This document shows, piece by piece, positions 5,409 through 31,006 of a DNA stretch of 32,000 nt (position 1 is its first letter; the number at the start of each line of letters is the position of its first letter). The DNA is taken from positions 3,135,127-3,167,126 of the forward strand of contig NZ_JQNQ01000001.1 in the NCBI RefSeq assembly GCF_000745315.1. The letters are read 5' to 3'. Under the pieces are notes generated by a model, which searched no databases, had not been told where the DNA came from, and saw nothing but the letters and a program-made list of their open reading frames with translations. The translations under genes and the position numbers were made by a program. Source of the DNA: Salegentibacter sp. Hel_I_6 (GTDB taxonomy: Bacteria > Bacteroidota > Bacteroidia > Flavobacteriales > Flavobacteriaceae).

Positions 5409-5705
5409 TTATTTAAATCTTACAGTCAAATCTTCCCAATCGGGGTTGAAATCGTTTATCAGATTTATTTTCCAGAGTCGATTCCATTTTTTAAGTTGTT
5501 TTTCCCTTTTAATCGCCAACGACGGATATTCGAATTTTTCATAATATACTAGTTTATTAAGTCGGTATCTACTGCTAAAACTTTTTAGGTTTCGATTTCT
5601 ATGTTGATATAATCTTTGTTTCAGGTTTCTTGTAATCCCAATATATAGTGTTCCATATTTACGATTTGTAATGATGTAAACGTAATATTGGTAGTCTGTA
5701 TTCAT
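5409..5705 (-). CDS. small GIY-YIG (URI-domain) nuclease family protein
   Basis: 98 aa. YVYIITNRKYGTLYIGITRNLKQRLYQH gives the GIY...YIG pair followed by a conserved Arg. Size and layout match stand-alone COG2827-type proteins. Confidence 0.85.
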   Translation of the reverse strand: MNTDYQYYVYIITNRKYGTLYIGITRNLKQRLYQHRNRNLKSFSSRYRLNKLVYYEKFEYPSLAIKREKQLKKWNRLWKINLINDFNPDWEDLTVRFK

Positions 5706-5716
5706 AATTTATTTCA

Positions 5717-5760
5717 GTCACTCTCTTAAAAATGGGAGTCTTTTTTAATATCGTATTTCT
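5717..5760. repeat. right copy of the direct repeat flanking the GIY-YIG gene
   Basis: gtcactctcttaaaaatgggagtcttttttaatatcgtatttct. See 5362-5401. Confidence 0.6.
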
Positions 5761-5778
5761 CAATTCTGTGTTTTTTGA

Positions 5779-5802
5779 GATTTCCGCCTTCGCGGAAATG
5801 AC
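5779..5802 (-). repeat. GTCAT-type hairpin element (minus strand gtcatttccgcgaaggcggaaatc)
   Basis: Perfect 8-bp stem. Differs from 3210-3233 by one nucleotide in the loop. Confidence 0.8.
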
Positions 5803-5814
5803 AGAAAACTTCAT

Positions 5815-5845
5815 AAAAAAAGGCTTGTCGTGAGACAAGCCTTTT
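5815..5845 (-). terminator. intrinsic terminator of the trp attenuator
   Basis: Minus strand reads AAAAGGCUUGUC-UCAC-GACAAGCC followed by seven U. The stem 5818-5829/5834-5845 is a perfect 12 bp (8-bp GC-rich core). It lies 29 nt after the leader stop codon. Confidence 0.8.
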
Positions 5846-5874
5846 GTATGAGATTATACTATAGCGATGTTACT

Positions 5875-5931
5875 TCACGACGTTTGACGTAAATTTTTCC
5901 ACCACCAGGTATTTGCTGTAATTGTTTTCAT
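5875..5931 (-). CDS. trpL: trp operon leader peptide, 18 aa, MKTITANTWWWKNLRQTS
   Basis: My reading of the minus strand: ATG 5931-5929, three consecutive TGG codons at 5907-5899, TGA at 5877-5875. Too short for the ORF track. An in-frame upstream ATG at 5964-5962 would give 29 aa (MKANNWHLLYFMKT...) with a fourth Trp. Confidence 0.75.
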   Translation of the reverse strand: MKTITANTWWWKNLRQTS

Positions 5932-5969
5932 AAAATATAATAAATGCCAATTATTGGCTTTCATTGCTT

Positions 5970-6000
5970 CAAAGATAGAAAGCTCTTTTAAATAAACAAG
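5970..6000 (-). promoter_or_regulatory. candidate promoter of the trp leader transcript
   Basis: Minus strand carries TAtcTTTG (5977-5970), matching the Bacteroidetes -7 consensus TAnnTTTG. A partial -33 element cTTG (6000-5997) lies 19 nt upstream. Confidence 0.4.
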
Positions 6001-6010
6001 TCGATTTTAT

Positions 6011-6049
6011 AAAAAGAAAAGCCGGAAAAGTAAATTTAACTTTTCCGGC
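6011..6049 (-). terminator. intrinsic terminator downstream of the yceI pair
   Basis: Stem gccggaaaag (6021-6030) pairs with cttttccggc (6040-6049). On the minus strand it is followed by UUUUCUUUUU. Confidence 0.75.
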
Positions 6050-6070
6050 TGGAATTGTGCAATCTAATTA

Positions 6071-6571
6071 TTAGAATTTCAACTCAATATTTAAATCGAA
6101 ATTATCGTAAATCGTTTGATCTCCAAGTCCGCTGAAAAAGCTACCGGAATTGTATTTCACGTTATATTTAGAACGATCTATTGTTAATTTGGTAGTAGCA
6201 GTATTATTGTTGTAATCTAAATCGAAAGTTACCGGATGAGTGTTTTCTTTAATTGTTAGATCTCCAACCACACCATAAGTGCCATCATCTTTTTTGGCTA
6301 CGCTGGTAATTACCAGTTTGGAAGTTGGATGGTTATCTACTCCAAAGAAATCATCTGAATTTAAGTGACCTTCCAATCCTGCTTTATCGTCTCCTTTAAG
6401 ATCTGTTACAGTAATTGTGGTCATATCCATTACAAATTCGCCACCTACTATTTCATCGTTTTCAAACTTGAATTTCCCATCTTTTAGATCGATGGTTCCT
6501 GAGTGTGATCCTAAAACTTTCTTTCCTTTCCAGGCGATATTACTGGCCTGGGTATTTATTTGTTTTTCCAT
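6071..6571 (-). CDS. YceI-like polyisoprenoid-binding protein, no signal peptide
   Basis: 166 aa, collinear with and highly similar to ORF 6620-7198 (DDFFGV, KLVITSVAKK, GVVGDLTIKE, LTIDRSKYNV, ELKF) but lacking its N-terminal hydrophobic leader. Confidence 0.85.
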   Translation of the reverse strand: MEKQINTQASNIAWKGKKVLGSHSGTIDLKDGKFKFENDEIVGGEFVMDMTTITVTDLKGDDKAGLEGHLNSDDFFGVDNHPTSKLVITSVAKKDDGTYGVVGDLTIKENTHPVTFDLDYNNNTATTKLTIDRSKYNVKYNSGSFFSGLGDQTIYDNFDLNIELKF

Positions 6572-6619
6572 AATAATTCAATTTTTCTTTTTCAATAGCA
6601 ATTTTCTTCCCGGTACAGT

Positions 6620-7198
6620 TTAGAATTTTAATTCTACGTCCAGTTCAAAATTATCGTAGATAGTTTTGTCTCCAAGGTTATCAAAGAAACTTCCAGAACC
6701 ATAACGTACATTGTACTTAGAGCGGTCTATAGTAAGTTCTGTAGAAGCTGAATTTTTACTCCAATCTAAATCAAAAGTTACTGAATGAGTGTCTTCTTTT
6801 ATAGTAAGATCTCCAACTACACCGAAAGTATTATCACTTTTCTTGGCTACGCTGGTTATTACCAGTTTAGAATTAGGATATTTTTGAACTCCAAAGAAAT
6901 CATCTGACTTTAAATGTCCTTCAAGCTTACCTTTGTCCTCTCCTTCTAAGTCGGTAACTGTGATAGAAGTCATATCTATTACGAACTCTCCTCCTTTTGG
7001 TTCATTATCTTCAACGATAAAATGTCCTTCTTTAAAATCGATCGTTCCATAATGAGATCCGGTTACTTTTTCACCTTCCCATTGTACTGAACTTTCTTTT
7101 ACATCAATTTTCTTTTCCTGTGCGTTTACGTTGGTAAAAGATAAAAGAGATACAATAACTGTAGATGCAAGGGCACCTCTAAATAGATTCTTTTTCAT
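6620..7198 (-). CDS. YceI-like polyisoprenoid-binding protein with signal peptide
   Basis: 192 aa. The N-terminus MKKNLFRGALASTVIVSLLSFTNVNAQ looks like a signal peptide. The rest is a YceI-type lipocalin-like domain. Confidence 0.85.
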   Translation of the reverse strand: MKKNLFRGALASTVIVSLLSFTNVNAQEKKIDVKESSVQWEGEKVTGSHYGTIDFKEGHFIVEDNEPKGGEFVIDMTSITVTDLEGEDKGKLEGHLKSDDFFGVQKYPNSKLVITSVAKKSDNTFGVVGDLTIKEDTHSVTFDLDWSKNSASTELTIDRSKYNVRYGSGSFFDNLGDKTIYDNFELDVELKF

Positions 7199-7232
7199 AA
7201 CAATTTTTGGTTTTAATTAATTTAGTTTTGAT

Positions 7233-7865
7233 TTATATTAAATGGAATAATTCCTCTTCTTGTTTTCTTACTTTTTTGGCGTGCTGTAATTGATCTTCGT
7301 CACTTCTATACCCAGCCGTGGCAATAACAGCGGTAGTTAAATTTGTTCCTGAAATCCCCAATATCTCATCAAACTTTTCAGCATCAAAACCTTCCATAGG
7401 GCAGGTATCCACCTTTAAATGAGCTGCAGCTGAAAGTAGATTTCCTAATGCGATATAGGTTTGCTTTTGTGCCCAGATCTTTTGTTGATCTTCAGACTTT
7501 CCTAAAATATTAGAAGTCAGCATATCTTTTAAACCACTCAGATCCTGAACCTGAATTTCTCGAATTTTACTGATATTCTCTAGATAAGCATCTATATAAG
7601 CTTCATTTAATTTCTTAAGTCCAACAAAAACAAATACGTGGGAAGCATCGGTAAGTTGCGACTGATCCCAGGCAGCAGCTTTAAGTTTTTCTTTGGTTTC
7701 TTTATCTGAAATTACAAATACCTCATAAGGTTGAAGCCCATAAGATGAAGCGGAAAGTTGGATACTTTTTTGCAATTTCTCTACGTCCTCTTTACTTAGA
7801 GATTTTGTAGTATCAAATTTTTTGGTCGCATAGCGCCAGTTTAAATTCTCTATATAATTCTCCAT
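7233..7865 (-). CDS. nitroreductase-family NAD(P)H oxidoreductase
   Basis: 210 aa. NWRYATKKFD and SSYGLQPYE are typical N-terminal motifs of the nitroreductase fold. The start lies 2 nt after the marR stop. Confidence 0.8.
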   Translation of the reverse strand: MENYIENLNWRYATKKFDTTKSLSKEDVEKLQKSIQLSASSYGLQPYEVFVISDKETKEKLKAAAWDQSQLTDASHVFVFVGLKKLNEAYIDAYLENISKIREIQVQDLSGLKDMLTSNILGKSEDQQKIWAQKQTYIALGNLLSAAAHLKVDTCPMEGFDAEKFDEILGISGTNLTTAVIATAGYRSDEDQLQHAKKVRKQEEELFHLI

Positions 7866-7867
7866 AC

Positions 7868-8317
7868 CTAGTTTCTTATTTTATTTAAACAATTAGTAAC
7901 AATTTCAATTTCTTCTTCGCTGATGTCCTGAATTAGCTCTTTTTCTACTGCATCTACTTGTGGATCGATTTCTTCTAGTAGATCCAGACCTTTATCAGTA
8001 ATACTTATTTCAACTTTACGCCGGTTGGCCTCACAAATAATTCTTTCAGTTAATCCCTTGGTTATAAGTTTATCTACCAGCCTGGTGGTGTTGCTCATCT
8101 TGCTCACCATACGTTCCTGGATAGTACTAAGATTTGCCGGTTTCCCTTTTTGTCCTCTTAAAATTCTAAGCACATTAAACTGTTGAATTGAAATATCGAA
8201 TGGTTTTAAAGCAGCTGCCACCTGTTCATCAATAAGATTTGCAGTAACCAAAATGCTAAGACTTAGCTTTCTGGCCGGCGGTAAATTATTTGTTTTTAAT
8301 TGATCTTCGATTTTCAT
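7868..8317 (-). CDS. MarR-family transcriptional regulator
   Basis: Winged-helix region LSIQQFNVLRILRGQ...LSTIQERMVSKMSNTTRLVDKLITKGL. The track start (8344) lies inside a 16-bp palindrome, so I prefer the ATG at 8317 (MKIEDQLK...). The start remains uncertain. Confidence 0.85.
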   Translation of the reverse strand: MKIEDQLKTNNLPPARKLSLSILVTANLIDEQVAAALKPFDISIQQFNVLRILRGQKGKPANLSTIQERMVSKMSNTTRLVDKLITKGLTERIICEANRRKVEISITDKGLDLLEEIDPQVDAVEKELIQDISEEEIEIVTNCLNKIRN

Positions 8318-8330
8318 TTGTCTAAACAAC

Positions 8331-8349
8331 ATTTGTATATACAAATATA
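8331..8349 (-). promoter_or_regulatory. candidate marR operator overlapping a -7 promoter box
   Basis: Perfect 16-bp palindrome ATTTGTATATACAAAT at 8331-8346. The minus strand reads TAtaTTTG at 8349-8342, matching TAnnTTTG. Confidence 0.45.
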
Positions 8350-8514
8350 AGCCGGATTTACAATTTAGATCAAAATGAAATGTTAAATTTTTCCAGTAGG
8401 AATCGAAGGCAATTGGAAGCTCTGTTTTTTAAAACTTTCAATATCTTTACACTGAAAAATATATTAGGAATCACAGATCACCTTCATTAAGGGGATTATT
8501 TAAAAATAAAATTT

Positions 8515-8829
8515 ATGAAAGAACTTAATCAGGATGAATGGCAATCACAGCTGGAAAAAGATGAAAATGCAGTGATTTTAGACGTAAGAACCGAAGAAGA
8601 AGTAGAGGAAGGGTATATTCCTAAAGCTAAAAACCTTGATATTTATAAAGGTCAGGAATTTGTAAATGAAGTAGAAAAGCTGGATAAGGATAAAAATTAT
8701 TATATCTATTGCCGCTCCGGAAAGCGCAGTGCACAGGCCTGTACTATTTTAGACCAGATGGGATTTGCCAACACCTATAACCTTGAAGGAGGTTTTATGG
8801 AGTGGGATGGTGAGAAAACTGAGGATTAA
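8515..8829 (+). CDS. rhodanese-like domain protein
   Basis: 104 aa single rhodanese domain with active-site loop CRSGKRS. Confidence 0.85.
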   Translation: MKELNQDEWQSQLEKDENAVILDVRTEEEVEEGYIPKAKNLDIYKGQEFVNEVEKLDKDKNYYIYCRSGKRSAQACTILDQMGFANTYNLEGGFMEWDGEKTED

Positions 8830-8833
8830 ATAA

Positions 8834-8868
8834 AAAGAAAGCAGTAAATAATTTTTACTGCTTTCTTT
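8834..8868. terminator. bidirectional intrinsic terminator between convergent genes
   Basis: aaagaaagcagtaaa-taatt-tttactgctttcttt is a long perfect stem with A/T runs on both sides. It lies between the stop at 8829 (+) and the stop at 8873 (-). Confidence 0.75.
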
Positions 8869-8872
8869 TTAT

Positions 8873-10090
8873 TTAATTGGATCTATCTATTAATAACCAA
8901 CGCGTTCCTATACTAATTATAGTGAGAATTTCTTTGGCGGCGATATTAGTGATGGTCGTATTATTTTGAAGGTCAAATAAGGTATCACCATTTTGAAAAT
9001 TTAGGGAAGTGCTGCCGCTTCCCTGCCAGCCAATTAAAATTAATTCCCTGCCTCTAAAAGAAGCAGCGGGAGGGATTGTAATCGAGGAAGGGCTATTAGT
9101 TATTCTTAAATAATAAACTTCAGGACCAATGGTATAATTGCCAGAACTGCCTGTACTAACATAATTTCTGGTGTGATTGTGTTTCCAATCAACTTTTCCT
9201 GAATTATCTGAAACTAAAATTTGGTTCTCTTCTCCCCGGGAATCAGGTAAAGTATATTCTACTGCCGGGGTTTTTCCTATTCCTACAGGGCCGGCAAAAT
9301 ATCCGGCAAAAACTCTGGAGCTGGAGTTTCCTTCAGCTTTAGCATAAATTGCATAGATATTCCCTCTACCGGTGGGAGTTCCAATTTCAGTTAGAATACC
9401 ATAATTATTACTATTAGCTCCTTCAGTTCTACCCACCTTATTATAAATTCCAAATATATCTTTGCTACCAGTGGTTTTATTGGTAACATTATGAATCCCG
9501 TAGCGTTCGCCTTCACCCTCACTGGAAACATTTAATTTTAATCCATATTTGATCGCATTTGTTTTGCTGCGATTCCTTATTTCAATGCCATAGGTATTTC
9601 TTGTTTCTGCGGAATTATTATTATCTATTTCCAGACCTTTTTTGATATCCTGAGCATCATCAGAAGTTATTGCAATTTGTAATTTACTCTGAATTTCTTC
9701 AGTACCAATTCCGATATTTCCTTTTCTGAATAAATTATCATCGATATTCCCCGGGCTCTGAGTAGTATTCGGCTTATAAAAATTAACTGCTTTAGCATCG
9801 GAAACTATAGACTTCCATTCACTTTCCTGCTGATGCCAATAGTAAAAGCCGGTAGGCGAATTATTAAAGGTTTGACTGAGAAAAACAAGCATTCCATGTT
9901 GTTCTACTCCTGGGTTTTGGGAAGGAAATTTTTTAATCCTTGGTATTAAAATTCCGTCTATTTTAGAAGGATTATCGGTATCGGTGGCGATTACATCTAA
10001 TTGCGCACCGGGCTCTGTGGTGCCAATACCAACTTGAGAAAATACTGGAATTGCAAAAAACAAAAAATAAGAAAATATAAATCTTTTCAT
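8873..10090 (-). CDS. secreted hypothetical protein with three GIG(T/K) motifs
   Basis: 405 aa. Signal-like N-terminus MKRFIFSYFLFFAIPVFSQ. Motifs VGIGTTEPGAQLDV, IGIGTEEIQSKLQI and VGIGKTPAVEYTL. No enzyme motif recognised. Confidence 0.7.
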   Translation of the reverse strand: MKRFIFSYFLFFAIPVFSQVGIGTTEPGAQLDVIATDTDNPSKIDGILIPRIKKFPSQNPGVEQHGMLVFLSQTFNNSPTGFYYWHQQESEWKSIVSDAKAVNFYKPNTTQSPGNIDDNLFRKGNIGIGTEEIQSKLQIAITSDDAQDIKKGLEIDNNNSAETRNTYGIEIRNRSKTNAIKYGLKLNVSSEGEGERYGIHNVTNKTTGSKDIFGIYNKVGRTEGANSNNYGILTEIGTPTGRGNIYAIYAKAEGNSSSRVFAGYFAGPVGIGKTPAVEYTLPDSRGEENQILVSDNSGKVDWKHNHTRNYVSTGSSGNYTIGPEVYYLRITNSPSSITIPPAASFRGRELILIGWQGSGSTSLNFQNGDTLFDLQNNTTITNIAAKEILTIISIGTRWLLIDRSN

Positions 10091-13280: not shown

Positions 13281-14185
13281 TATGCGGTAGGAGTTTGATT
13301 GGTTAATGTAAGGAACTGTTCTTCCAGGCTTTCTTTACGTTTTACCAGGTAAGAAAGTGAAAGTCCTTTTTCAAACAAATATTCATTGATAGTTTCAGCA
13401 TCCATAGGTTCTTTGAGAATTGCTGTCACAATATTTTCCTTTTCAGAAACATTTTCTATTCCTGGATGTGCGATAAGTAATTCCTGCAATAATTGCATGT
13501 TCTTTGCCTGGAGTTCAAAGAAACCGTGGCTGGCATTAATAGCATCTACCGGGCCGCTGTAAAGTTTTTTTCCATTTCTTATAATAACCACATGCGAACA
13601 AACTTTCTCAACTTCATCCAGTAAATGCGAAGCGAGTAAAATGGTAGTTCCACCGGCGGCGATTTTCCTTATAATCTCTCTTATTTGATGAATCCCCTGA
13701 GGATCAAGTCCGTTAGTTGGCTCATCTAAAATAAGAATTTCCGGATCGTTAAGTAGGGCAGAAGCTATGGCAAGTCGTTGCTTCATCCCAAGAGAAAAAG
13801 TTCTAAACTTACTGTCTTTTCTATCCAGTAAATTAACGATTTCAAGTTTTTCTTCAATTTTATTTTTGGGAACATCTTTAATCTTACAAACCAAAGCCAG
13901 GTTTTGTGCTGCGGTCATATAAGGGTAAAAATTAGGATGCTCAATTATGGCCCCTACTTTTTTTAAAGCTTCGTGCGTTTCAGTTTTCCCGCCAAACCAG
14001 GCAAATTCACCAGCGGTTTTATTAACTACGTTCAAAACCATTCCCAGGGTGGTAGATTTTCCGCTACCATTAGGACCTAAAATCCCATATACATTGCCTT
14101 TTTTTATGGTGAAAGATAAATTATCTACCGCGGTTATTGCGCCATATTTTTTTGTAAGGTCTTTAAGACTTAGAATTGTTTCCAA
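13280..14185 (-). CDS. ABC transporter ATP-binding protein
   Basis: Walker A GPNGSGKST, signature FSLGMKQRL, Walker B ILILDEP. Confidence 0.92.
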   Translation of the reverse strand: METILSLKDLTKKYGAITAVDNLSFTIKKGNVYGILGPNGSGKSTTLGMVLNVVNKTAGEFAWFGGKTETHEALKKVGAIIEHPNFYPYMTAAQNLALVCKIKDVPKNKIEEKLEIVNLLDRKDSKFRTFSLGMKQRLAIASALLNDPEILILDEPTNGLDPQGIHQIREIIRKIAAGGTTILLASHLLDEVEKVCSHVVIIRNGKKLYSGPVDAINASHGFFELQAKNMQLLQELLIAHPGIENVSEKENIVTAILKEPMDAETINEYLFEKGLSLSYLVKRKESLEEQFLTLTNQTPTA

Positions 14186-14279
14186 AATTGAAGAAAAGTT
14201 TAAAGTAAGACGACGAAGTTAGGTAATTGTTACAGATTTCGCTCTAGAAAGCTTATTTTTGGTAAAAAGCATACCTAAT

Positions 14280-15350
14280 ATGGAAGAAAAGCTGATGTCT
14301 AAGAAGAAACCTTCATTTGCTGTAAATGAAAGGTTAAATCGATATCTGGCCAAACATAACCGAAACACCAAAATTCCTGTTTTTTACGATGATTTATTGC
14401 GTTTTTCCGGTTCAGTGGTGGTCTACGATCAGCACGAAGAAGATACATTTTGGGTACGCTGCTATTATCCAGATTTTGAACGTGAAGAAATAGATAACAG
14501 CTTAAAACAGGTGTATACCATCATGCATTCTGATGGAAGTGATGATTCACTGGAATTTCTTACCGTAGATGCTATAGACTATTGTACGTTCGGAAATTCA
14601 AAACCTTTCCGCATAAAAGTGCGAAATATTCTGAATGATAGTTTTACTTATTTCTATGTAAAAAAAGCCGATGCTTCCCGAATCTACGGACTCGAATTTG
14701 AACATTTGCTTTCCCCACACCGAATTAACTTCCTGGTTTATAAAGACACTTTAATTGAAGAACATATTGCCGGTATTCCCGGAGATGTCTTTATTGAAGA
14801 TCATTTACCACTTTGTGATAATAGGGCGCAAACCCAAATAGCAAAGCAGTTTGTGAAATTTAATGAGCGTTGTACAGTAAGACTGCTTGGCGATATGCGA
14901 TCTTATAACTATGTGGTGATTCCCACCCACGATTTTGATCATGTAGAGTATCAAATTAGAGCTATTGATTTTGATCAACAATGCTTTGAAGGAAATCTAA
15001 AAGTTTACAGGCCCCAGTTTTTTAAGGAGAATTTAAAAATGGTACAACTGGTTCAGGAGAAATTACAGGAATCTTCTATAGAACAATATAGAAAAGAAGA
15101 GCGTTCGCTGCTTGCCAAAAGAATTATTAATACCAGGCCCCGCTATAAAGAATTATTGCGATGTATGATCAATGATCATGTCTCCACACAGGAGAATGTG
15201 AAAATCTTAAGAAAGGATCTTTATCGGTATACTAATGACATGAAATTTAAGCGCGCCAGCACTATGGGCCAAATTTTAAGGACTGCGTTAGATTTTGTAC
15301 GTCGTAATTATGAAGATGTTAATATGAAACGTTTGCTGGAAAGTTCATAA
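14280..15350 (+). CDS. conserved hypothetical protein, possibly protein-kinase-like fold
   Basis: The ORF track starts at TTG 14259. The first ATG is 14280 (MEEKLMSKKK...). LGDMRSYNYVV (D-x4-N) and IRAIDFDQ resemble the kinase catalytic loop and metal-binding motif, and YFYVKKA could supply the beta-3 Lys. This is pattern recognition only. Confidence 0.65.
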   Translation: MEEKLMSKKKPSFAVNERLNRYLAKHNRNTKIPVFYDDLLRFSGSVVVYDQHEEDTFWVRCYYPDFEREEIDNSLKQVYTIMHSDGSDDSLEFLTVDAIDYCTFGNSKPFRIKVRNILNDSFTYFYVKKADASRIYGLEFEHLLSPHRINFLVYKDTLIEEHIAGIPGDVFIEDHLPLCDNRAQTQIAKQFVKFNERCTVRLLGDMRSYNYVVIPTHDFDHVEYQIRAIDFDQQCFEGNLKVYRPQFFKENLKMVQLVQEKLQESSIEQYRKEERSLLAKRIINTRPRYKELLRCMINDHVSTQENVKILRKDLYRYTNDMKFKRASTMGQILRTALDFVRRNYEDVNMKRLLESS

Positions 15351-15386: not shown

Positions 15387-15465
15387 CGTCATCCTGAATT
15401 TATTTCAGGATCTAAAATGTCGATAATCAGAACAGGTTAGAAACTGAAACAAGTTCAGCTTGACG
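15387..15465. repeat. two hairpin elements (15387-15412 plus-oriented GTCAT type; 15444-15465 minus-oriented)
   Basis: cgtcatcctgaatttatttcaggatc is the exact reverse complement of 16816-16841. ctgaaacaagttcagcttgacg has a ctgaa/ttcag stem. Confidence 0.8.
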
Positions 15466-15515: not shown

Positions 15516-15552
15516 GCCACGAATTCACTAATATTATTTGTGTATTCTTGGC
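15516..15552. repeat. empty 37-nt palindrome of the GCCACGAAT repeat family
   Basis: gccacgaattcactaat-att-atttgtgtattcttggc. The reverse complement of the right arm (gccaagaatacacaaat) is 16/17 identical to the left arm of the GxxExxY cassette at 20027-20043. Confidence 0.75.
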
Positions 15553-16646: not shown

Positions 16647-16870
16647 GTCATTTCCGTCTCGATAAAAAATCGGGATAAACTGCGGCGGAAATCTATTTTT
16701 TAGTTTTTTAATTGTCATTGCGAGGCACGAAGCAATCTGTCAGATTGTGGTAATTTAAGTTGAAGATTACTTCACTCCGTTCGTAATGACGATCCTTATT
16801 GATATGAACGACTTAGATCCTGAAATAAATTCAGGATGACGATAAACCAGTTTCCCGAAACAAATTCGGG
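16647..16870. repeat. cluster of six hairpin elements filling a 253-bp spacer
   Basis: 16647-16693 gtcatttccg[tctcgataaaaaatcgggataaact]gcggcggaaatc (nested); 16714-16737 gtcattgcgaggcacgaagcaatc; 16765-16791 minus-oriented gattacttcactccgttcgtaatgacg; 16816-16841 gatcctgaaataaattcaggatgacg; 16852-16870 tcccgaaacaaattcggga. A further aattgc-ttc-gcaatt hairpin follows at 16873-16887. Confidence 0.8.
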
Positions 16871-18445: not shown

Positions 18446-18478
18446 ATTTTTAAGTTGAAAGTTAAAAACATAAACTTC

Positions 18479-18541
18479 ACTACTCACTACTCACTACTCA
18501 CTACTCACTACTCACTACTCACTACTCACTACTCACTATTC
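18479..18541. repeat. heptanucleotide tandem repeat, 9 copies of ACTACTC (last copy ACTATTC)
   Basis: Read directly: eight perfect ACTACTC units plus one variant. On the minus strand these are GAGTAGT units. The array lies between the cca-like stop (18529-18531) and the ctaA start. Confidence 0.95.
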
Positions 18542-19953
18542 ACTGATAATCCCAATTCTCTTCCTTTCTTAAGCATTAAATTCCTCGCAGCTTCATGTTC
18601 GTTTGGAATTTCCCCTTCAAGAATTGCTTCTTTAATGGTGTCTTTAATAATACCGATTTCACGGGAAGGTCTTATATTAAAAGTTTCCATAATTTCTTCA
18701 CCGGTAACCGGAGGTTGGAAATTACGAACGTGGTCACGTTCTTCCACCTCTTTCATTTTGGTGCGGACCACTTTAAAATTATTATGGTATTTCTTAAATC
18801 GATTCGGATTTTTCGTGGTGATATCAGCTTCGCAAAGCGTCATTAAATCTTCAATATCTTCCCCAGCGTCAAAAATAAGTCGGCGTACGGCAGAATCGGT
18901 TACGTCGTTGTCCACAATAGCAATTGGCCGCGAACTCATTAAAACCAATTTCTGCACATATTTCATCTTGTCATTTAATGGGAGACGAAGCCGTTTAAAT
19001 AGTTTAAAAACCATTTTTGCGCCAACAAACTCGTGCCCGTGAAAAGTCCACCCAATTTTCTTGTGAAACTTTTTAGTAGGAGCCTTACCAATATCATGCA
19101 ATAAAGCAGCCCAGCGCAGCCAAAGATCACCAGTATTTTCCGCGATATTATCTACCACTTCTAAAGTATGCCAAAAATTATCTTTGTGCTTTTGGCCTTC
19201 AATTTCGTCAATACCTTCCAGAGCAGTAAGCTCCGGTAAGATGATAGGAAGTAATCCGGTTTTATGTAGTAGCGAAAAGCCTTTTGAAGGTTTTTTGGCC
19301 AGCATTATTTTATGCAGCTCGTCGGTAATTCTTTCTTTAGAAATAATCTTGATGCGTTTCTTATTTCTTGTAATCGCATCTAAAGACTCTTTTTCAATCT
19401 TAAAATTTAGCTGTGTCGCAAAGCGAATAGCACGAAGCATTCGCAATGGATCATCAGAATAAGTAATATTGGGATCCAGTGGGGTTTTGATGATTTTAGA
19501 ATTTAGATCCTCAATTCCGTCAAAAGGATCTAAAAGATTTCCGAAGTTATCTTCATTCAAACCAAGCGCCAGTGCATTTATGGTGAAATCGCGCCGATTT
19601 TGGTCGTCTTCCAAACTGCCGTCTTCCACAATAGGTTTGCGACTATCTTTTTGATAACTTTCTTTACGTGCGCCCACAAACTCGATTTCCATATCAAAAG
19701 CACGCAGCATTGCCGTACCATAGTTTTTGAAAACCTGGACTTTGGGTTTGTGCGGAAGTATTTCTGCAACTTTTTTCGCAAGTTCAATGCCGCTTCCTAC
19801 CGCAACAATGTCAATATCTTTGGGTTCTCCTCGCTGTAAGATATGATCGCGAACAAAGCCTCCAATAACATAGCTTTCAAGTTTTATTTCCTCCGAGGCC
19901 TGGGTAATGACCCTGAATATATTGTGCGATAAAGCGCCTTTATAATTCTTCAC
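18529..19953 (-). CDS. CCA-adding enzyme / poly(A) polymerase-family tRNA nucleotidyltransferase with HD domain
   Basis: 474 aa. GGFVRD, DIDIV and RRDFTINAL motifs in the nucleotidyltransferase head. HDIGK in the C-terminal HD domain. Confidence 0.85.
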   Translation of the reverse strand: MKNYKGALSHNIFRVITQASEEIKLESYVIGGFVRDHILQRGEPKDIDIVAVGSGIELAKKVAEILPHKPKVQVFKNYGTAMLRAFDMEIEFVGARKESYQKDSRKPIVEDGSLEDDQNRRDFTINALALGLNEDNFGNLLDPFDGIEDLNSKIIKTPLDPNITYSDDPLRMLRAIRFATQLNFKIEKESLDAITRNKKRIKIISKERITDELHKIMLAKKPSKGFSLLHKTGLLPIILPELTALEGIDEIEGQKHKDNFWHTLEVVDNIAENTGDLWLRWAALLHDIGKAPTKKFHKKIGWTFHGHEFVGAKMVFKLFKRLRLPLNDKMKYVQKLVLMSSRPIAIVDNDVTDSAVRRLIFDAGEDIEDLMTLCEADITTKNPNRFKKYHNNFKVVRTKMKEVEERDHVRNFQPPVTGEEIMETFNIRPSREIGIIKDTIKEAILEGEIPNEHEAARNLMLKKGRELGLSVNSE

Positions 19954-20026: not shown

Positions 20027-20043
20027 GCCACGAATACACAAAT
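20027..20043. repeat. left arm of the 17-nt inverted repeat bracketing the GxxExxY gene (gccacgaatacacaaat)
   Basis: 16/17 complementary to 20419-20435. Ends 2 nt before the stop codon at 20046-20048. Confidence 0.85.
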
Positions 20044-20045
20044 TT

Positions 20046-20417
20046 TTATAGCACAATTCTTTTATGGTCTAGTAAATCCTTGTGGAAGTTTGCTAATGCT
20101 AACCTGTTTTCTGAAACCTTTAAATAATTAATACACTGCGCTATATGCTTATCGTGAATATTATCAACAGATTTTATTTCTAAAATTATTTTATCAAAAA
20201 GAATGAAATCAGCATAAAACTTGTGACTAAGAATAGTTCCTTTATAAGAAACTGAGTATTCTTTTTCTCTTTCAAAAGGAATATTCAGCGAACTAAACTC
20301 CAGTTCTAATGCATCTTTATAAACTATTTCAGAAAATCCACTGCCTAAATAATTATATACATTGAATAATGCTCCAACAATGGCATAACTTTCGTCTTTA
20401 TATATAATATCGGCCAT
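20046..20417 (-). CDS. GxxExxY protein (PD-(D/E)XK nuclease-like small protein)
   Basis: 123 aa. GFSEIVY matches the GxxExxY signature, and ADFILFDKIILEIK resembles the D...E.K nuclease-core motif of this family. Confidence 0.85.
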   Translation of the reverse strand: MADIIYKDESYAIVGALFNVYNYLGSGFSEIVYKDALELEFSSLNIPFEREKEYSVSYKGTILSHKFYADFILFDKIILEIKSVDNIHDKHIAQCINYLKVSENRLALANFHKDLLDHKRIVL

Positions 20418-20418
20418 A

Positions 20419-20435
20419 ATTCGTGTATTCGTGGC
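20419..20435. repeat. right arm of the inverted repeat (attcgtgtattcgtggc)
   Basis: Reverse complement is gccacgaatacacgaat. Begins 2 nt upstream of the ATG at 20417-20415. Confidence 0.85.
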
Positions 20436-22156: not shown

Positions 22157-22199
22157 CAAAAGTATAGTAGCCTAAATTTTAGGTTAGGGTTTCATATTT

Positions 22200-22952: not shown

Positions 22953-22954
22953 TT

Positions 22955-25850: not shown

Positions 25851-26962
25851 TTTACCAACTTTCCATAAAGAGCAATCATATTTGAAGCAATATTTTCGTC
25901 TGAAAACTTCTGAACGTAGGCGAAGGATTTTTCTGCAATTTTTTTCCGTTGATCTTCATCTTTAAGCAAGCTGCTTATGTTATCTGAAATTTCTGAAATA
26001 TTATTTGGGTCAACATACACGCTATCTGGTCCTCCGGCCTCTGGAAAACAGCCGTAATTAGTAGTTATTACCGGTGTTTTGGAATAAAGTGCTTCTATTA
26101 TTGGAATTCCGAAACCTTCAAAAAGTGAAGGATATATAAAAATTTTAGCTCCCTGGTAAAGGGCCGCGAGTTCGTAAGTTGAAAGTCCGTTTAGAAAAGT
26201 TACTTTCTTTTCCATTCCTTCTTTCTCAATATATTCTTTTATTTTTTCAGCATAAGAAGTTAGAGAACCAACTATAATAAGATGAGTATCTATATCTTTT
26301 ATGGCTTTTACAGCGGCAAAAATGTTCTTTCTGCTTTCTATGGTTCCTACATTTAATAGATAATCTTGCGGAAGCTTATATTTCTCAATTACTTTATCAA
26401 TCGCTTCGGCAGGATATAAGGTTTTGTATTCTTTCTGACAGCCCTGATAAATAACTTCAATTTTTTCAGGCGCTATTTTAAGGAAGTCTACGATATCGTC
26501 TTTGGTTTGTTGACTCACTGCTATAACCGCATCAGCTGTTTTAGCTGCATGGGTAAATTTTCTTTTATAGATTTTCTTATCAAAAAAGGAATAAAATTCA
26601 GGATAGCGTAAAAAAATTAAATCGTGTATGGTCACTACACTTTTGATATTAGTTTTATTAAGGCCCAAAGGAATTTCACCTGAAAGTCCATGAAAGATTT
26701 CAATATTATCTTTTTTAAGGTCTTTAACTATATTTCGTCTTCTCCAAAGATTATTAAGAAATCTATCCTTTGGTGTTATAGGCAATTTTTCTTCTACCGG
26801 TGAGGTTGGTTTATAAAGCTGTTTTTTTCCTGGTTTGGGATTGTATAGGTAATATTTATTTTTTGGATAAAAAGAGCTTAAAATACTAACTAAATCCCGG
26901 CTATAATTCCCCAGGCCGGTTGTATTGTGAAAAACTCTTTTTGCTTCGTAACCTATATTCAT
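25847..26962 (-). CDS. glycosyltransferase family 4/1
   Basis: 371 aa with the FEGFGIPIIEALYSKTPVITTNYGCFPE motif. Confidence 0.85.
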   Translation of the reverse strand: MNIGYEAKRVFHNTTGLGNYSRDLVSILSSFYPKNKYYLYNPKPGKKQLYKPTSPVEEKLPITPKDRFLNNLWRRRNIVKDLKKDNIEIFHGLSGEIPLGLNKTNIKSVVTIHDLIFLRYPEFYSFFDKKIYKRKFTHAAKTADAVIAVSQQTKDDIVDFLKIAPEKIEVIYQGCQKEYKTLYPAEAIDKVIEKYKLPQDYLLNVGTIESRKNIFAAVKAIKDIDTHLIIVGSLTSYAEKIKEYIEKEGMEKKVTFLNGLSTYELAALYQGAKIFIYPSLFEGFGIPIIEALYSKTPVITTNYGCFPEAGGPDSVYVDPNNISEISDNISSLLKDEDQRKKIAEKSFAYVQKFSDENIASNMIALYGKLVK

Positions 26963-27287
26963 AATTTGAAGTAGCTTTATTTAAAATCTTTACCTTCAAC
27001 TAGAAGTTGAAGCTTGCAATTTGCAAAATTTAATATAAACCCTTTTATGAAACCTTCATAGATATCGGGAAAATTTGAGAATGGTTTTTGATATTAATTT
27101 TACATAAAATACTTTTACCTCGGTAATTGAGATTTAATGCTGCGAGGCTTGTCTCTATATGTAAATTATATCTTCTTAAGTTAAAATCCTCTAGCTCATT
27201 TGAAAATTTTAATTTTCGCGAATTCAACTAACCACATTATATCTTTATTGTAAAATTAATAGTTAAAATTAAGTATTTTTGAGTCAA

Positions 27288-28115
27288 ATGCAACTAATGA
27301 ATTCCATTAATACATCGGTGATTCTAAGTACTTATAATTCAGAGTCAAGACTCAGGAAGGTGCTTTGGAGTTATTCAGTACAAACTTATAAAAATTTTGA
27401 AATTGTTATAGCCGATGATGGTTCAGGGCAGAGTACTGAGAATTTGGTGAACGAGTTTAAGAAAGAATTTAAAATGCCTTTAACTCATGTATGGCAGGAA
27501 GACCACGGATTTCAGAAATCCAAAATTTTGAATAAGGCGATTGTATCTACAAATAGTGAATATATAATTTTTAGCGATGGCGATTGCATCGCCAGATCAG
27601 ATTTTGTTGAGCAACATATAAAAAACCGAAGAAGAAATCATTTTTTAAGCGGGGGGTATAATAAACTTAATGCAAAACTATCGAGTTTAATAGAGAAGGA
27701 AGAAATTATAAATCAAAAATGTTTTGATATCAAGTGGCTTAAAAAACAAGGTTTACCAAGTTCTTTTAAAAATAATAAGATTACTTCAAAAGGTTGGAAA
27801 GCTAGATTCTTGAATAGGATTACCCCTACAATCCCTACCTGGAACGGCCATAATTCCTCAGGCTGGAAAGATGATATTTTAAAGGTGAATGGCTTTGATG
27901 AAAGAATGCAATACGGCGGACAGGATCGGGAAATGGGGGAGCGGTTAATTAATCTGGGAGTTAAAGCAATTCAAATTAGATATACTGCAATTTGTCTACA
28001 TCTGGATCATACCCGAACCTACAAAAATGAAGATTCTCTAAAAAAAAATAGAGAAATAAGGAATAAAACAAAGTCGGAAAATAAAATAAAAACTTCTTAC
28101 GGCATCAAACTTTAG
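27288..28115 (+). CDS. glycosyltransferase family 2
   Basis: VILSTYNS...EIVIADDGS...FSDGDC are GT2 (GT-A) motifs. The track start is TTG 27279. The first ATG is 27288, so the start is uncertain. Confidence 0.8.
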   Translation: MQLMNSINTSVILSTYNSESRLRKVLWSYSVQTYKNFEIVIADDGSGQSTENLVNEFKKEFKMPLTHVWQEDHGFQKSKILNKAIVSTNSEYIIFSDGDCIARSDFVEQHIKNRRRNHFLSGGYNKLNAKLSSLIEKEEIINQKCFDIKWLKKQGLPSSFKNNKITSKGWKARFLNRITPTIPTWNGHNSSGWKDDILKVNGFDERMQYGGQDREMGERLINLGVKAIQIRYTAICLHLDHTRTYKNEDSLKKNREIRNKTKSENKIKTSYGIKL

Positions 28116-29164
28116 AGGACATTTTCCTGTATAAAATTATCTATTTCAGGGATAATATATTTAGGTTCCAATTTTTGATATAATGATTTTCTTTCAGAAA
28201 AAATTTCCCTTCTGCTTTTGTCTTTATAAATTTCTGGATATAGATCCTTTACATGAATTGATCTATTTTGTTTTTCGTTCTCAAAGGTGCCCCAAAATTC
28301 CTTCGGTACAAATGGTGAAAATATAGAGAAACTAGGTTTTTTTAGAGCTTTTGCTATATGAATTGCGCCTCCTTCATTACCGATTATGGCATCACATTGA
28401 CTCATGATTTTTATAAAATCTCTAAGATTTTTAGCAACAATATCAAAATTAATATTTTTAGAGGCATTTAATTCCTTTCTTAATTGTGAAATGTACTTCT
28501 CCTGAGAAGGAGAATAATTTAAAAGGAAATTCATTTCATAATTCTCTGATAGATAATTTAATATGTGAGCCATATAATTTAATGGAAGCGACTTTTCCAT
28601 CGAACTTCCAGGAACCGCTAACATTATTGTTTTTCTTTCAGTATTCAAACTGCTTAGGGTCTTTTTTGCGGTGTCAATTTCTTCTTTTGAAAGATAAATT
28701 TTAGGATATGGGTCTATTGAAGCTTCTTTGACTATTGTTTTAATAAAACTAATTCTATCATCCACAGCTTTTCCATAGGGAGAAACTCTTCTTTCAAGAA
28801 GTTTTATTTTTGTTGTATAGGCAAATGGAATTGTAGTTTTATCGTAACCAATTCTAATTTTTGCATTACTAAACAAAGAAAATAACTGGCTTTCTAATTT
28901 TGAATAATGGTCTACCACCAAACTAAAATGCTGCTTTTTGATGAAAAGCAGCATTTTTAATAGATTAATGGGTTTCCGAACTTCTTCCTGTTTAACTTTT
29001 ATAATCTTATCAATGCTGGGATTGTTTTCCAAAACAGCTGAAGCAGAATCATAACAGAGAAAAGCAATATAAGCATTGGGAAAAGTAGTTCTCAAATTAT
29101 TCGCAATTATGGAAGCGAGAAGCACATCCCCAACCATTTTTTGCTGAATTATAAGTATTTTCAT
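28112..29164 (-). CDS. glycosyltransferase family 9 (heptosyltransferase-like)
   Basis: 350 aa. MKILIIQQKMVGDVLLAS N-terminus and C-terminal IIGNEGGAIHIAKALKKP are typical of GT9. Confidence 0.8.
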   Translation of the reverse strand: MKILIIQQKMVGDVLLASIIANNLRTTFPNAYIAFLCYDSASAVLENNPSIDKIIKVKQEEVRKPINLLKMLLFIKKQHFSLVVDHYSKLESQLFSLFSNAKIRIGYDKTTIPFAYTTKIKLLERRVSPYGKAVDDRISFIKTIVKEASIDPYPKIYLSKEEIDTAKKTLSSLNTERKTIMLAVPGSSMEKSLPLNYMAHILNYLSENYEMNFLLNYSPSQEKYISQLRKELNASKNINFDIVAKNLRDFIKIMSQCDAIIGNEGGAIHIAKALKKPSFSIFSPFVPKEFWGTFENEKQNRSIHVKDLYPEIYKDKSRREIFSERKSLYQKLEPKYIIPEIDNFIQENVL

Positions 29165-29255
29165 AGACCCCTATCGCCCTCTCCAAAGTAGAGGATTTAA
29201 TTTTTATCACTTTCTTTAATACTTCCTGATCTTTTTAGAATAAAAAGTTTTAATT

Positions 29256-29268
29256 CCCCCTTCGGGGG
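29256..29268 (-). terminator. hairpin ccccc-ttc-ggggg downstream of dapD (weak terminator candidate)
   Basis: GC-only 5-bp stem 10 nt after the dapD stop. The U-run on the minus strand begins only about 12 nt later, so it is not canonical. Confidence 0.3.
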
Positions 29269-29277
29269 TTAGGGGGC

Positions 29278-30093
29278 TTACACGGCTACATTGTATTCGC
29301 GTAATGCATCATTTAAAGAAGTCTTTTTGTTGGTAGACTCTTTACGTTTTCCAATAATTAATGCACAGGGTACATTGTATTCTCCGGCAGGGAATTTCTT
29401 GGTGTAACTTCCAGGGATCACTACCGATCTTGCTGGTACAATTCCTTTCATTTCTTTTGGTTCGTCGCCGGTAACATCTATAATTTTAGTTGAAGCGGTA
29501 AGCACTACATTAGCGCCCAAAACAGCTTCTTTTTCAACTTTAACGCCTTCCACCACGATACTTCTTGATCCCAGAAATGCGTTATCTTCTATAATTACTG
29601 GAGAAGCTTGCAAAGGTTCTAATACCCCGCCAATTCCTACTCCGCCACTAAGGTGAACGTTTTTGCCAATTTGTGCACAGCTTCCTACTGTGGCCCAGGT
29701 ATCTACCATAGTGCCTTCATCTACATAGGCGCCAATATTCACATAGCTTGGCATCATAATTACGCCGCTGGAAATATAAGCCCCGTGCCTTGCGACTGCA
29801 TTGGGAACTACACGAATTCCTTTTTCTTTATAACCTTTTTTCAACGGAATTTTATCGTGATATTCAAAAATTCCCGCTTCTAAAGTTTCCATTTGTTGGA
29901 TAGGGAAATAAAGCACTACGCCTTTTTTCACCCATTCGTTTACCTGCCATCCATTCTCGGTAGGTTCGGCAGTTCTTAATTTTCCCGAATCCAAAAGTGA
30001 GATAACTTCACGTATAGCTTTTATGGTTTCTGTATCTTTTAGTAATTCCCGGTTTTCCCAGGCTTCATTGATCTTAGCTTCTAAATGATCCAT
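29278..30093 (-). CDS. dapD: 2,3,4,5-tetrahydropyridine-2,6-dicarboxylate N-succinyltransferase
   Basis: 271 aa. Left-handed beta-helix hexapeptide repeats (GAYVDEGTMVDTWATVGSCAQIGKNVHLSGGVGIGG) after a DapD-type N-terminal domain. Confidence 0.9.
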   Translation of the reverse strand: MDHLEAKINEAWENRELLKDTETIKAIREVISLLDSGKLRTAEPTENGWQVNEWVKKGVVLYFPIQQMETLEAGIFEYHDKIPLKKGYKEKGIRVVPNAVARHGAYISSGVIMMPSYVNIGAYVDEGTMVDTWATVGSCAQIGKNVHLSGGVGIGGVLEPLQASPVIIEDNAFLGSRSIVVEGVKVEKEAVLGANVVLTASTKIIDVTGDEPKEMKGIVPARSVVIPGSYTKKFPAGEYNVPCALIIGKRKESTNKKTSLNDALREYNVAV

Positions 30094-30134
30094 TTTTTTT
30101 GATTTTTAGCAAATATAATAGCTTAAGGCTAATT

Positions 30135-30167
30135 TTTGGTGGTAAAGCAATATAAACCTTACCTTTG
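30135..30167 (+). promoter_or_regulatory. candidate ruvX promoter
   Basis: TTTG (30135-30138), then 21 nt, then TAccTTTG (30160-30167). This fits the Bacteroidetes -33/-7 consensus and lies 15 nt upstream of the ATG at 30182. Confidence 0.5.
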
Positions 30168-30181
30168 CGCAAATTTTGAAG

Positions 30182-30589
30182 ATGGCACGAATTATGGCAC
30201 TTGATTTTGGGACAAAACGCACCGGTATTGCCGTTAGCGATGAGCTCAAAATGATTGCTTCAGGATTAACTACCGTTAAAACACCAGAGCTTCTGGATTT
30301 TCTTGAAAAATATTTTAAAGAGGAAAATGTTGAATTGGTGCTGGTAGGAGAACCTAAACAAAAAGACGATGCGGCTTCACCCGTTGAAGTCTATATCCTG
30401 CAGTTTTTAAAAATTTTTATTAAAAAGTTTCCTGAAATGCCGCTTAAAAGAATTGATGAAAGGTTCACTTCAAAAATGGCTTTTCAGTCTATGATAGACA
30501 GCGGACTTAAAAAAAAGAAACGCAGAGATAAAGCACTTATAGATGAAATTAGCGCGACTATTATTCTGCAATCTTATTTATACGAGTAG
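30182..30589 (+). CDS. ruvX: Holliday junction resolvase-like protein RuvX (YqgF)
   Basis: ALDFGTKRTGIAVSD N-terminal motif. The track start is TTG 30176; I prefer the ATG at 30182 (MARIMALDFG...). Confidence 0.9.
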   Translation: MARIMALDFGTKRTGIAVSDELKMIASGLTTVKTPELLDFLEKYFKEENVELVLVGEPKQKDDAASPVEVYILQFLKIFIKKFPEMPLKRIDERFTSKMAFQSMIDSGLKKKKRRDKALIDEISATIILQSYLYE

Positions 30590-30643
30590 CCATAAAATGT
30601 ATAATATATATTGAATAATGTATAATTTCAGTTGTTTGAAATC

Positions 30644-31006
30644 ATGAAAACTGACTTAATTAAACGTTCCAATGTTTTTGCGCATAAATGTGTGAAACTA
30701 GCAATAAATCTTCCAAAAAATAAATTAGGAGGCCATATTGAGGGTCAGTTAATTAGATGTAGTACTTCTGTTGCAGCGAATTACAGGGCCGCATGTTTAG
30801 GGCAATCAAAAAAAGCTTTTATTTCAAAATTGGGAATAGTAATTGAAGAAGCTGATGAATGTATTTTCTGGATAGAATTCGCGAAGGATGAAGATCTGCT
30901 AAATGAGAAAGATTCAAAAGAATTGATAATTGAAGCCAAAGAGTTGACATCGATCTTTATCGCGTCTAGAATCACCGCGGTAAGAAACCAAAATTCCGGA
31001 AAATAA
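30644..31006 (+). CDS. four-helix-bundle protein (formerly 23S rRNA intervening-sequence protein family)
   Basis: QLIRCSTSVAANYRAA...SKKAFISKLGIVIEEADECIFWIEF matches the family pattern (QL.RS..SI.AN..E......DF..K......E..E...W). The track start is TTG 30632; the ATG at 30644 is preferred. Confidence 0.8.
   Translation: MKTDLIKRSNVFAHKCVKLAINLPKNKLGGHIEGQLIRCSTSVAANYRAACLGQSKKAFISKLGIVIEEADECIFWIEFAKDEDLLNEKDSKELIIEAKELTSIFIASRITAVRNQNSGK

Follow-up and report, generated by a model that had tools for sequence, protein, structure and literature searches.

The window analyzed here is a 32,000-nucleotide stretch of the Salegentibacter sp. Hel_I_6 genome (G000:C1:3135127-3167126; G000 is the genome holding the window, a single contig of 4.21 Mb with ~35% G+C), in which three small genes lie in spacers between operon genes. 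Their open reading frames (ORFs) were assigned to families by Pfam and NCBIfam profile matches. The first (5409-5705, minus strand) encodes a single-domain GIY-YIG protein of 98 residues (PF01541, E = 3.8e-17) and is located between the trp leader/attenuator and trpE; the leader, a Bacteroid-trp RNA upstream of the gene at 5834-5951 on the minus strand, was recognized with Rfam RF01692 (68.3 bits against a gathering score of 49). The second (20046-20417, minus strand) encodes a GxxExxY protein of 123 residues with a PD-(D/E)XK fold (TIGR04256, E = 1.5e-34; PF13366 or PDDEXK_3, E = 1.7e-31) and is found between tsaC and cca. The third (30644-31006, plus strand) encodes a 120-residue four-helix-bundle (4HB) protein of the 23S rRNA intervening sequence (IVS) protein/Avd family (TIGR02436, E = 3.9e-20; PF05635, E = 1.1e-15) and lies between ruvX and def. 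An earlier reading of this DNA, the original prediction, had placed three such ORFs here, each co-oriented with the operon it interrupts, and had proposed that together with palindromic repeats they form one mobile or defense-like system. The profile matches bear out the positions, families, and neighbors of all three ORFs, and each gene is indeed co-oriented with its own neighbors (trp leader and trpE, tsaC and cca, ruvX and def).

PF01541 spans residues 6 to 81 of the GIY-YIG protein, and no second domain was found with Pfam or NCBIfam. Alignment with 12 homologs gave 22 invariant columns, which include Y10, Y21, G23, R31, E68, and N87. The 4HB protein matches PDB entry 2rld (E = 1.4e-8). 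Nuclease folds, as had been claimed, are present in the GIY-YIG and GxxExxY proteins; the 4HB protein is not a nuclease. A Y1 transposase domain is absent from all three proteins in the Pfam and NCBIfam searches. The alternative suggestion of a defense module finds no support in PADLOC-DB 2.0, which gave no match for the GxxExxY or 4HB protein and only a marginal match of the GIY-YIG protein to UzuA (E = 0.0022 over 30 residues). The genome holds one stand-alone GxxExxY gene, eight 4HB genes, and four small GIY-YIG genes. The ratio of nonsynonymous to synonymous divergence for intact copies is ~0.12 for GIY-YIG, ~0.05 to 0.1 for GxxExxY, and ~0.06 for 4HB; purifying selection acts on the intact copies of all three families.

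Tight framing of each gene by repeats or hairpins was confirmed, and the type of repeat differs by family. An inverted-repeat score, defined as the complementarity between the two 70-nt flanks of an ORF, upstream of its start and downstream of its stop, was computed for each of the 3,433 ORFs in the genome; the 4HB gene ranked first and the GxxExxY gene third, and six of the seven 4HB copies scored were at or above the 92nd percentile. The GxxExxY gene is enclosed by a 3' arm (20027-20044; GCCACGAATACACAAATT on the plus strand), which begins 1 nt past the stop codon, and a 5' arm (20418-20435; AATTCGTGTATTCGTGGC on the plus strand), which abuts the ATG; the two are complementary at 17 of 18 positions. 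The 4HB gene has an AT-rich 5' arm with GAATAAT/GTATAAT-like units (30593-30626), complementary at 27 of 34 positions to the 3' arm (31008-31041). No single long stem encloses the GIY-YIG gene, which is flanked instead by short self-folding hairpins with a GTC-A/T-Y (GTCWY) head. Downstream, in inverted orientation relative to the gene, is GTCTTTCCCGCGAAAGCGGGAGTCT (5362-5386, plus strand; RNAfold, -12.2 kcal/mol); a degenerate second copy of this inverted hairpin (GTCACTCTCTTAAAAATGGGAGTCT, 5716-5740, plus strand) stands 11 nt upstream of the start codon, and a sense-oriented hairpin, GTCATTTCCGCGAAGGCGGAAATC, is located farther upstream (5778-5803, minus strand). Three GIY-YIG paralogs were scored for direct repeats, the window copy and two others; in two of the three, hairpin elements recur as long direct repeats on both sides of the gene, which puts their scores among the highest 0.6% for ORFs of the genome. 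A cargo-less two-hairpin frame is present at the trpG-trpD junction (3154-3233), consisting of GTCATTTCCGCGTAGGCGGAAATC in sense orientation and GTCATTCCCGTGAAGACGGGAATC in inverted orientation with 30 nt between them.

Single-domain GIY-YIG proteins of ~94 residues have been described as Ssn nucleases, for example, SsnA of Neisseria meningitidis (Chenal et al., Nat Commun 2025, PMC11893778). In the available text of that paper, ssn genes are flanked by oriented hairpin repeats, called NTS (CGTCATTCCCGCGMAVGCGGGAATCYRG) or more generally SRM; the nucleases bind the hairpin in single-stranded DNA and cut beside it; and the hairpin-gene-hairpin layout is likened to an insertion sequence, its mobility being only hypothesized. 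The published SRM pattern has five matches in the 4.2-Mb genome, two of which are in the window. One, W5361(+), is the downstream hairpin at 5362-5386 and lies 23 nt past the GIY-YIG stop codon; the other, W3154, is in the trpG-trpD frame, where W3155-3177 (GTCATTCCCGTGAAGACGGGAATC) is two stem positions off the corresponding core of the Neisseria NTS consensus. The upstream hairpins have the GTCWY head and a stem and are one or more positions short of the pattern, by a single position for 5778-5803. Use of the SRM pattern as a genome-wide counter was rejected (5 matches versus 2 to 10 in simulated genomes); because the local hairpins are stem variants, it is unusable for copy counts here. For relatives of the gene, one genome per species was scanned, which gave 562 confirmed relatives, and the best 80 (47 to 65% identical, from many phyla) were examined. 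A canonical SRM was found within 400 nt in 23 of these 80, and on both sides in 14, with an expectation of ~0.001 per locus; the SRM-flanked relatives include loci from Rickettsiaceae (L285), Omnitrophota, and cyanobacteria. Given the local SRM matches and these relatives across phyla, the GIY-YIG gene fits an Ssn-type cassette, its placement in the Ssn clade, cd10448, being by proxy only.

The genus provided both filled and empty versions of the hairpin frame. In the comparison set of 21 congeners (22 genomes with G000; G-codes denote genomes of the genus), a GIY-YIG gene is present at trpL-trpE in 9 of the 22 genomes and at trpG-trpD in 3. The trpG-trpD frame that is empty in G000 itself is filled in G018, G001, and G003, by GIY-YIG genes 77 to 84% identical to that of the window. 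At trpL-trpE, empty frames with both hairpins and a spacer of 50 to 60 nt were found in G014, G013, G002, and G009, and empty frames with the downstream hairpin alone in G006, G004, and G021. Compared with the empty site, a filled site has in addition the ORF and a second copy of the 25-nt inverted hairpin; in G019 and G012, the two copies around the gene are near-perfect direct repeats of AGACTCCCGCCTTCGCGGGAGTGAC.

Similar frames are found beyond the genus. The best GIY-YIG matches in 29 other Flavobacteriaceae genera include 11 from the trp operon (trpL-trpE, 3; trpB-trpA, 8), and most trp-operon loci of other genera are framed by a ATTTCCGC-loop-GCGGAAAT stem in inverted orientation. The stem of the 5778-5803 hairpin also flanks homologous GIY-YIG genes in other genera, and a stem pattern with 16 bases specified, ATTTCCGCnnnnGCGGAAAT, was found in 21 of 121 genera, with none for the reversed control. 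Related GIY-YIG genes are seen at three to four different trp junctions in the same hairpin frames. Trp-operon residence is specific to Flavobacteriaceae, with zero cases among the non-Flavobacteriaceae loci of the best 80.

Synonymous divergence (dS) points to movement of the unit between species. The dS of the GIY-YIG gene is below that of trpE in 21 of 21 comparable genome pairs, with medians of 0.27 and 1.06 and a difference of up to 14-fold. Small gene size does not explain this, because the similarly small GxxExxY gene tracks its neighbor. We therefore take the low dS to suggest that the GIY-YIG cassette was exchanged between species after their divergence, that is, that it spread horizontally.

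The spacer between tsaC and cca has a different history. The two genes are 7 to 22 nt apart outside the genus, and the spacer within the genus is 113 to 694 nt. The GxxExxY cassette occupies it in G000, G017, G005, and G008; a further copy, in G010, has a stop in the ORF and damage to an arm. Both arms are kept in G014, where the ORF has been replaced by SRM-like hairpin repeats, and 11 other congeners have a pair of GTCA-headed hairpins at this junction. The dS of the GxxExxY gene tracks that of tsaC (0.28 versus 0.31, 0.58 versus 0.68, and 1.39 versus 1.05), from which we conclude that this cassette is old and has been inherited vertically, with losses. A long junction duplication was observed in G008 (L014): past the cassette there is a second copy of ~100 nt from the 3' end of tsaC and of the beginning of the 5' arm. 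The 3' end of cca itself (18463-18551) holds ~9 copies of a heptamer (GAGTAGT, coding strand), and in congeners the site has either this array or a GNAGTNN variant of it (GCAGTNN units). Descent of the array from a 4HB cassette was considered; the site is without a gene in all congeners, and the array is left out of the argument.

Nine of 19 congeners have the 4HB cassette at ruvX-def, two of them as a pseudogene, one with frameshifts (G005) and one with a TGA stop (G016). The arms persist in two ORF-deleted relics: what is left of the ORF is its first 14 nt, between the arms, in G013 and its last ~25 nt in G019. Between G000 and G006, the 4HB dS is 0.10 and that of the flanks 0.74 to 0.93; the G014 allele is more divergent. 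A dS far below that of the flanks in some pairs indicates some exchange between species, so the history of the 4HB cassette is mixed. In the close pair G006/G004, the spacers at this site differ along their whole length, which makes a precise insertion scar unreadable. In four other genera, a thiolase (acetyl-CoA acetyltransferase) gene has 4HB genes on both sides on the same strand (L131, L134, L146, and L147), an arrangement which indicates that some 4HB positions are old.

These histories bear on the simplest alternative, that all three are ordinary accessory genes with host functions, inherited vertically, and that the repeats are only terminators or mRNA-stabilizing hairpins, with nothing mobile. 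The agreement between GxxExxY and tsaC dS, purifying selection on all three families, and old positions (GIY-YIG in the trp operons of many genera, 4HB around thiolase in four) are in line with such a view, as is a terminator-like hairpin in the window (15516-15552, described below). It would have to accommodate, however, the GIY-YIG dS below that of trpE in every pair and the 4HB value in the G000-G006 pair, the occurrence of GIY-YIG genes at several trp junctions in the same hairpin frames, and the patchiness of the families, which among the matches listed occur in 36, 92, and 78 of 121 genera with many stop-bearing fragments. A GIY-YIG identity of 47 to 58% across phyla is hard to square with vertical descent, and the arms enclose the ORF rather than following it. 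We consider this explanation very unlikely.

The GxxExxY and 4HB cassettes resemble each other, and both recall the ORF-bearing IVS of 23S rRNA. The framing extends to other genera: against a control made by pairing the upstream flank of one locus with the downstream flank of another, the score was above the 95th percentile at 14 of 28 GxxExxY loci (p = 1e-11) and at 11 of 29 4HB loci (p = 7e-8). The sequence of the arms varies by locus, their complementarity is kept, and they are made of two to three tandem units of 7 to 9 nt; the GxxExxY arms are made from the dispersed GCCACGAAT motif. In the predicted fold of the GxxExxY cassette, a long-range stem closes the whole ORF in both the minimum free energy and centroid structures (z = -4.3). 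In Coxiella burnetii, the IVS of helix 45 contains an S23p ORF whose ATG is immediately preceded by tandem heptamers, the first of which is where RNase III cuts; this ORF is reported to be decaying and probably untranslated (PMC4990558). Literature searches found no paper on GxxExxY or 4HB cassettes outside rRNA. Neither cassette is in a 23S rRNA helix, and the Rfam scan of the window found no rRNA. The two cassettes thus appear to be built like ORF-bearing 23S rRNA IVS placed inside ordinary operons.

About 25 cargo-less palindromes had been claimed for the window. The order of magnitude holds under liberal criteria, with about 17 intergenic GTCAT-type hairpins (including 3155, 3211, and 15441) and 3 to 4 copies of the GCCACGAAT type; strict criteria leave only 6, against a genome tile median of 3, which places the window in the top 8%. 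Generic hairpin density is ordinary (49 versus a median of 39.5). Twelve of the GTCAT-type hairpins are in the trp operon and five to six at 15.3 to 16.9 kb; none in the window adjoins the GxxExxY or 4HB cassette. Besides those around the GIY-YIG gene and in the trpG-trpD frame, GTCAT-headed SRM-like hairpins occur at trp-operon junctions within 429-3937, with heads at 460(-), 1167(-), 2004(+), 2094(-), 2111(+), and 3937(-). GTCAT/GTCAA-headed hairpins at 15388-15411(+), 15441-15464(-), 16647(+), 16714(+), and 16817-16840(-) are of the CGTCAxxCTGAA...TCTAA family, whose characteristic 12-mers occur ~45 to 90 times in the genome.

Cargo-less hairpins had also been viewed as derivatives of the gene-bearing units. 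The empty two-hairpin frames at trpG-trpD and trpL-trpE and the arm-only 4HB relics agree with this; the one GCCACGAAT hairpin examined, at a convergent gene junction (15516-15552), does not. About 12 congeners conserve this hairpin, which in G005 has a compensatory change in the stem, and a GxxExxY gene is present at this locus in 0 of 21 congeners. Its candidacy as an ORF-deleted cassette was rejected, because no filled allele exists in the 21 genomes and the hairpin is terminator-like; it is probably a bidirectional terminator.

All three genes are presence/absence polymorphic among the 21 congeners, and none is fixed. The distribution, however, does not have the form expected of one integrated mobile or defense-like system, in which the nucleases would recognize the palindromes and mobilize the three gene types and the hairpins. 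All presence/absence combinations occur: three families together in G000, G017, and G005, 4HB with GIY-YIG in G011, and single families in G021 (4HB), G008 (GxxExxY), and G019 (GIY-YIG). A member of another family was found within 1.5 kb at 1 of 89 family loci, about the chance level, and there is no conserved order. The dynamics differ as well, with GxxExxY vertical, GIY-YIG apparently horizontal, and 4HB mixed. The proposed link between nucleases and palindromes survives pairwise, as GIY-YIG with GTCAT hairpins in the manner of Ssn/SRM and as GxxExxY with arms made from GCCACGAAT, and not as a single system. The presence of three families in one window, two of them with nuclease folds, correlated copy numbers, and two repeat families that are sometimes composite can be cited for the joint system; set against a different type of repeat for each gene, the lack of GTCAT hairpins beside the GxxExxY and 4HB genes, independent gain and loss, and no PADLOC family above noise, it seems to us hardly credible.

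We propose instead that the window holds three independent cassettes of two kinds, which have in common a habitat, the spacers inside housekeeping operons, and no mechanism. We assign this a probability of roughly 0.7; a single system is disfavored because the repeat types differ, gain and loss are independent, and adjacency is at chance. The GIY-YIG gene would belong to a hairpin-gene-hairpin unit that moves, or is exchanged, between the hairpin frames of the trp operon, and the cargo-less hairpins and empty frames would be its targets or remains. The GxxExxY and 4HB genes would each form the loop of a long-range stem whose arms consist of tandem 7- to 9-nt units. Pairing of the arms in the operon transcript, or in single-stranded DNA, would allow the insert to be tolerated between cotranscribed genes, and the paired insert might be processed by RNase III, as in rRNA, the ORF product being kept by purifying selection. 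Both cassettes would persist mostly by vertical descent with repeated decay, the 4HB cassette with occasional exchange between species. Cleavage by the local Ssn-type protein, the mode of movement, and the pairing and processing of the arms are inferred here from the comparisons above and from the known systems.

Several observations weigh against this proposal. Clean insertion or excision between near-identical genomes was not seen. Most of the local hairpins miss the published SRM pattern, and its five matches in the genome fall within the 2 to 10 of simulated genomes; the nearest PDB match of the GIY-YIG protein is only the UPF0213 protein EF2693 (E = 0.0026). The predicted fold of the 4HB cassette includes the outer stem, yet its total stability is ordinary (z = -1.0). 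A wobble test of sense-RNA pairing went the other way: if the arms paired in the sense transcript, G.U mismatches should prevail, whereas the arm mismatches on the sense strand at 39 4HB and GxxExxY loci were A.C in 46 cases and G.U in 22 (p = 0.005). The remaining points concern independence. Copy numbers correlate across 121 genera (rho = 0.49 for GxxExxY and 4HB, 0.43 for 4HB and GIY-YIG, and 0.22 for GxxExxY and GIY-YIG), and do so after genome size is partialled out (0.47, 0.35, and 0.18); 33 of 34 GxxExxY-bearing genera also have 4HB (Fisher p = 3e-4). The statistics for these genus-level correlations and co-occurrence counts ignore kinship. The presence of all three families in one 32-kb tile has p ~0.002 to 0.003 under random placement, in a test chosen after the window had been seen. 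At least 8 cross-family pairs within 6 kb occur among the matches listed, by a rough estimate ~3 times the expectation, and a GTCWY head follows the GCCACGAAT motif within 45 nt in 8 of 27 copies (2.1 expected; p = 9e-4).

Such covariation would be expected if the elements were separate and their abundance was tied to a shared factor, for which single-stranded-DNA hairpin processing, natural transformation, and Ssn-made breaks that open operon spacers are candidates; the elements would then accumulate jointly in the same genomes and hot spots. The persistence of the correlations under genome-size control, the near-absence of GxxExxY without 4HB, and the three families in one tile favor a shared factor, as do the composite GCCACGAAT and GTCAT repeats, the clustering of 4HB genes with one another (4 of 29 loci; p = 1e-5), and the alternate occupancy of the same junctions by a cassette or by SRM-like hairpins, seen at tsaC-cca in 11 congeners and in the G014 arms around hairpins. 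The correlations, however, could mirror lineages that tolerate accessory DNA in general. Within 1.5 kb, members of different families adjoin each other no more often than by chance, and there are 59 genera with 4HB but no GxxExxY and 26 with 4HB but no GIY-YIG. On balance, we regard a shared factor as unlikely. One version of it is that single-stranded-DNA hairpins are processed, by Ssn acting on SRM hairpins or in the course of natural transformation, and that this creates or maintains permissive breakpoints in operon spacers, in which IVS-type 4HB and GxxExxY cassettes lodge and are exchanged between species. Such a process would account for the correlated copy numbers, the rarity of GxxExxY where 4HB is lacking, the alternating occupants of the same junctions, and the composite repeats; we rate it as quite improbable.

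As three independent cassettes, the elements can be compared with systems already described. The GIY-YIG unit shares with Ssn/NTS-SRM, as set out in the available text of PMC11893778, a single-domain protein of ~95 residues, oriented hairpins with a (C)GTCAT head and an ATC tail, cargo-less hairpins that are dispersed and clustered near the gene, and the hairpin-gene-hairpin architecture. It differs in that the published pattern is missed by the majority of the local hairpins, which are stem variants, and does not show the genome to be rich in SRM. Long residence in the trp operon past the attenuator, as seen for the Flavobacteriaceae cassette, is absent from the account in the same text. Free-standing GIY-YIG homing endonucleases (phage T4 Seg and I-TevI-like) likewise have the GIY-YIG domain, co-oriented intergenic insertion, and a patchy distribution, but the local 98-residue protein has no DNA-binding domain, and its filled sites are marked not by a split recognition site but by hairpins that are duplicated or inverted. 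REP/REPIN elements with RAYT (IS200/IS605-like) are similar in that a low- or single-copy gene is flanked by palindromes that are also dispersed without cargo, with single-stranded hairpins as the presumed substrate; unlike these, the local proteins lack a Y1 transposase domain, and the repeat structure is another one.

For the other two cassettes, the closest likeness is to the 23S rRNA IVS of Coxiella and Leptospira (PMC4990558). The 4HB protein is of the same family (PF05635), and the ORF lies in the loop of a stem with tandem heptamer-like units directly 5' of the ATG. Occurrence is sporadic, deletions and substitutions erode the ORF, and the element is ~0.45 kb long. The local cassettes, in contrast, are located between protein-coding operon genes and not in rRNA, and the GxxExxY cassette has a nuclease fold (PF13366), rather than a 4HB protein, in the same frame. 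Intact local ORFs are under purifying selection, whereas the Coxiella ORF is reported to be decaying and probably untranslated (PMC4990558). RNase III cutting is described for the Coxiella element; for the local cassettes, a stem is predicted.

Several other features were recorded in and near the window. The trpB-trpA spacer just left of it (G000:C1:3133534-3134169, ~636 nt) is filled by a tandem duplication, with four GCCACGAATACACTAATAT motifs of which two are followed directly by GTCATTGCGAGG hairpins; this junction holds a GIY-YIG gene in eight other genera. A tandem pair of YceI-family genes is located at 6071-7198(-), with ~74% DNA identity over 300 nt. At 13947-15350(+), a 363-residue ORF (14259-15350) is preceded by a 91-residue ORF in a different frame, and the matches in several congeners have one in-frame TGA; the pair looks like a programmed frameshift of a release-factor-2-type gene. 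Elsewhere in the genome (G000:C1:3271725-3287353), a run of small genes (130 to 180 residues), several with signal peptides or membrane segments, has 50- to 90-nt direct repeats around each gene and the highest direct-repeat scores in the genome; it may be a cassette array. A 120-residue ORF at G000:C1:1789702-1790064(-) lies between direct repeats (score 38.5) and is DUF559/Vsr-type endonuclease-like by eye; it may represent a fourth small repeat-framed nuclease family.

The comparison replaces the idea of one system with two concrete types of element that are open to testing. For Ssn, whose mobility as a unit is only hypothesized in the available text of PMC11893778, the filled and empty trp frames and a median dS 4-fold below that of the adjacent gene add comparative evidence that the hairpin-gene-hairpin unit acts as an exchangeable cassette. 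The GxxExxY and 4HB genes provide a further, well-controlled case, that of IVS-like cassettes inside ordinary operons. The covariation of the three families across genera, from statistics that ignore kinship, is a new lead.

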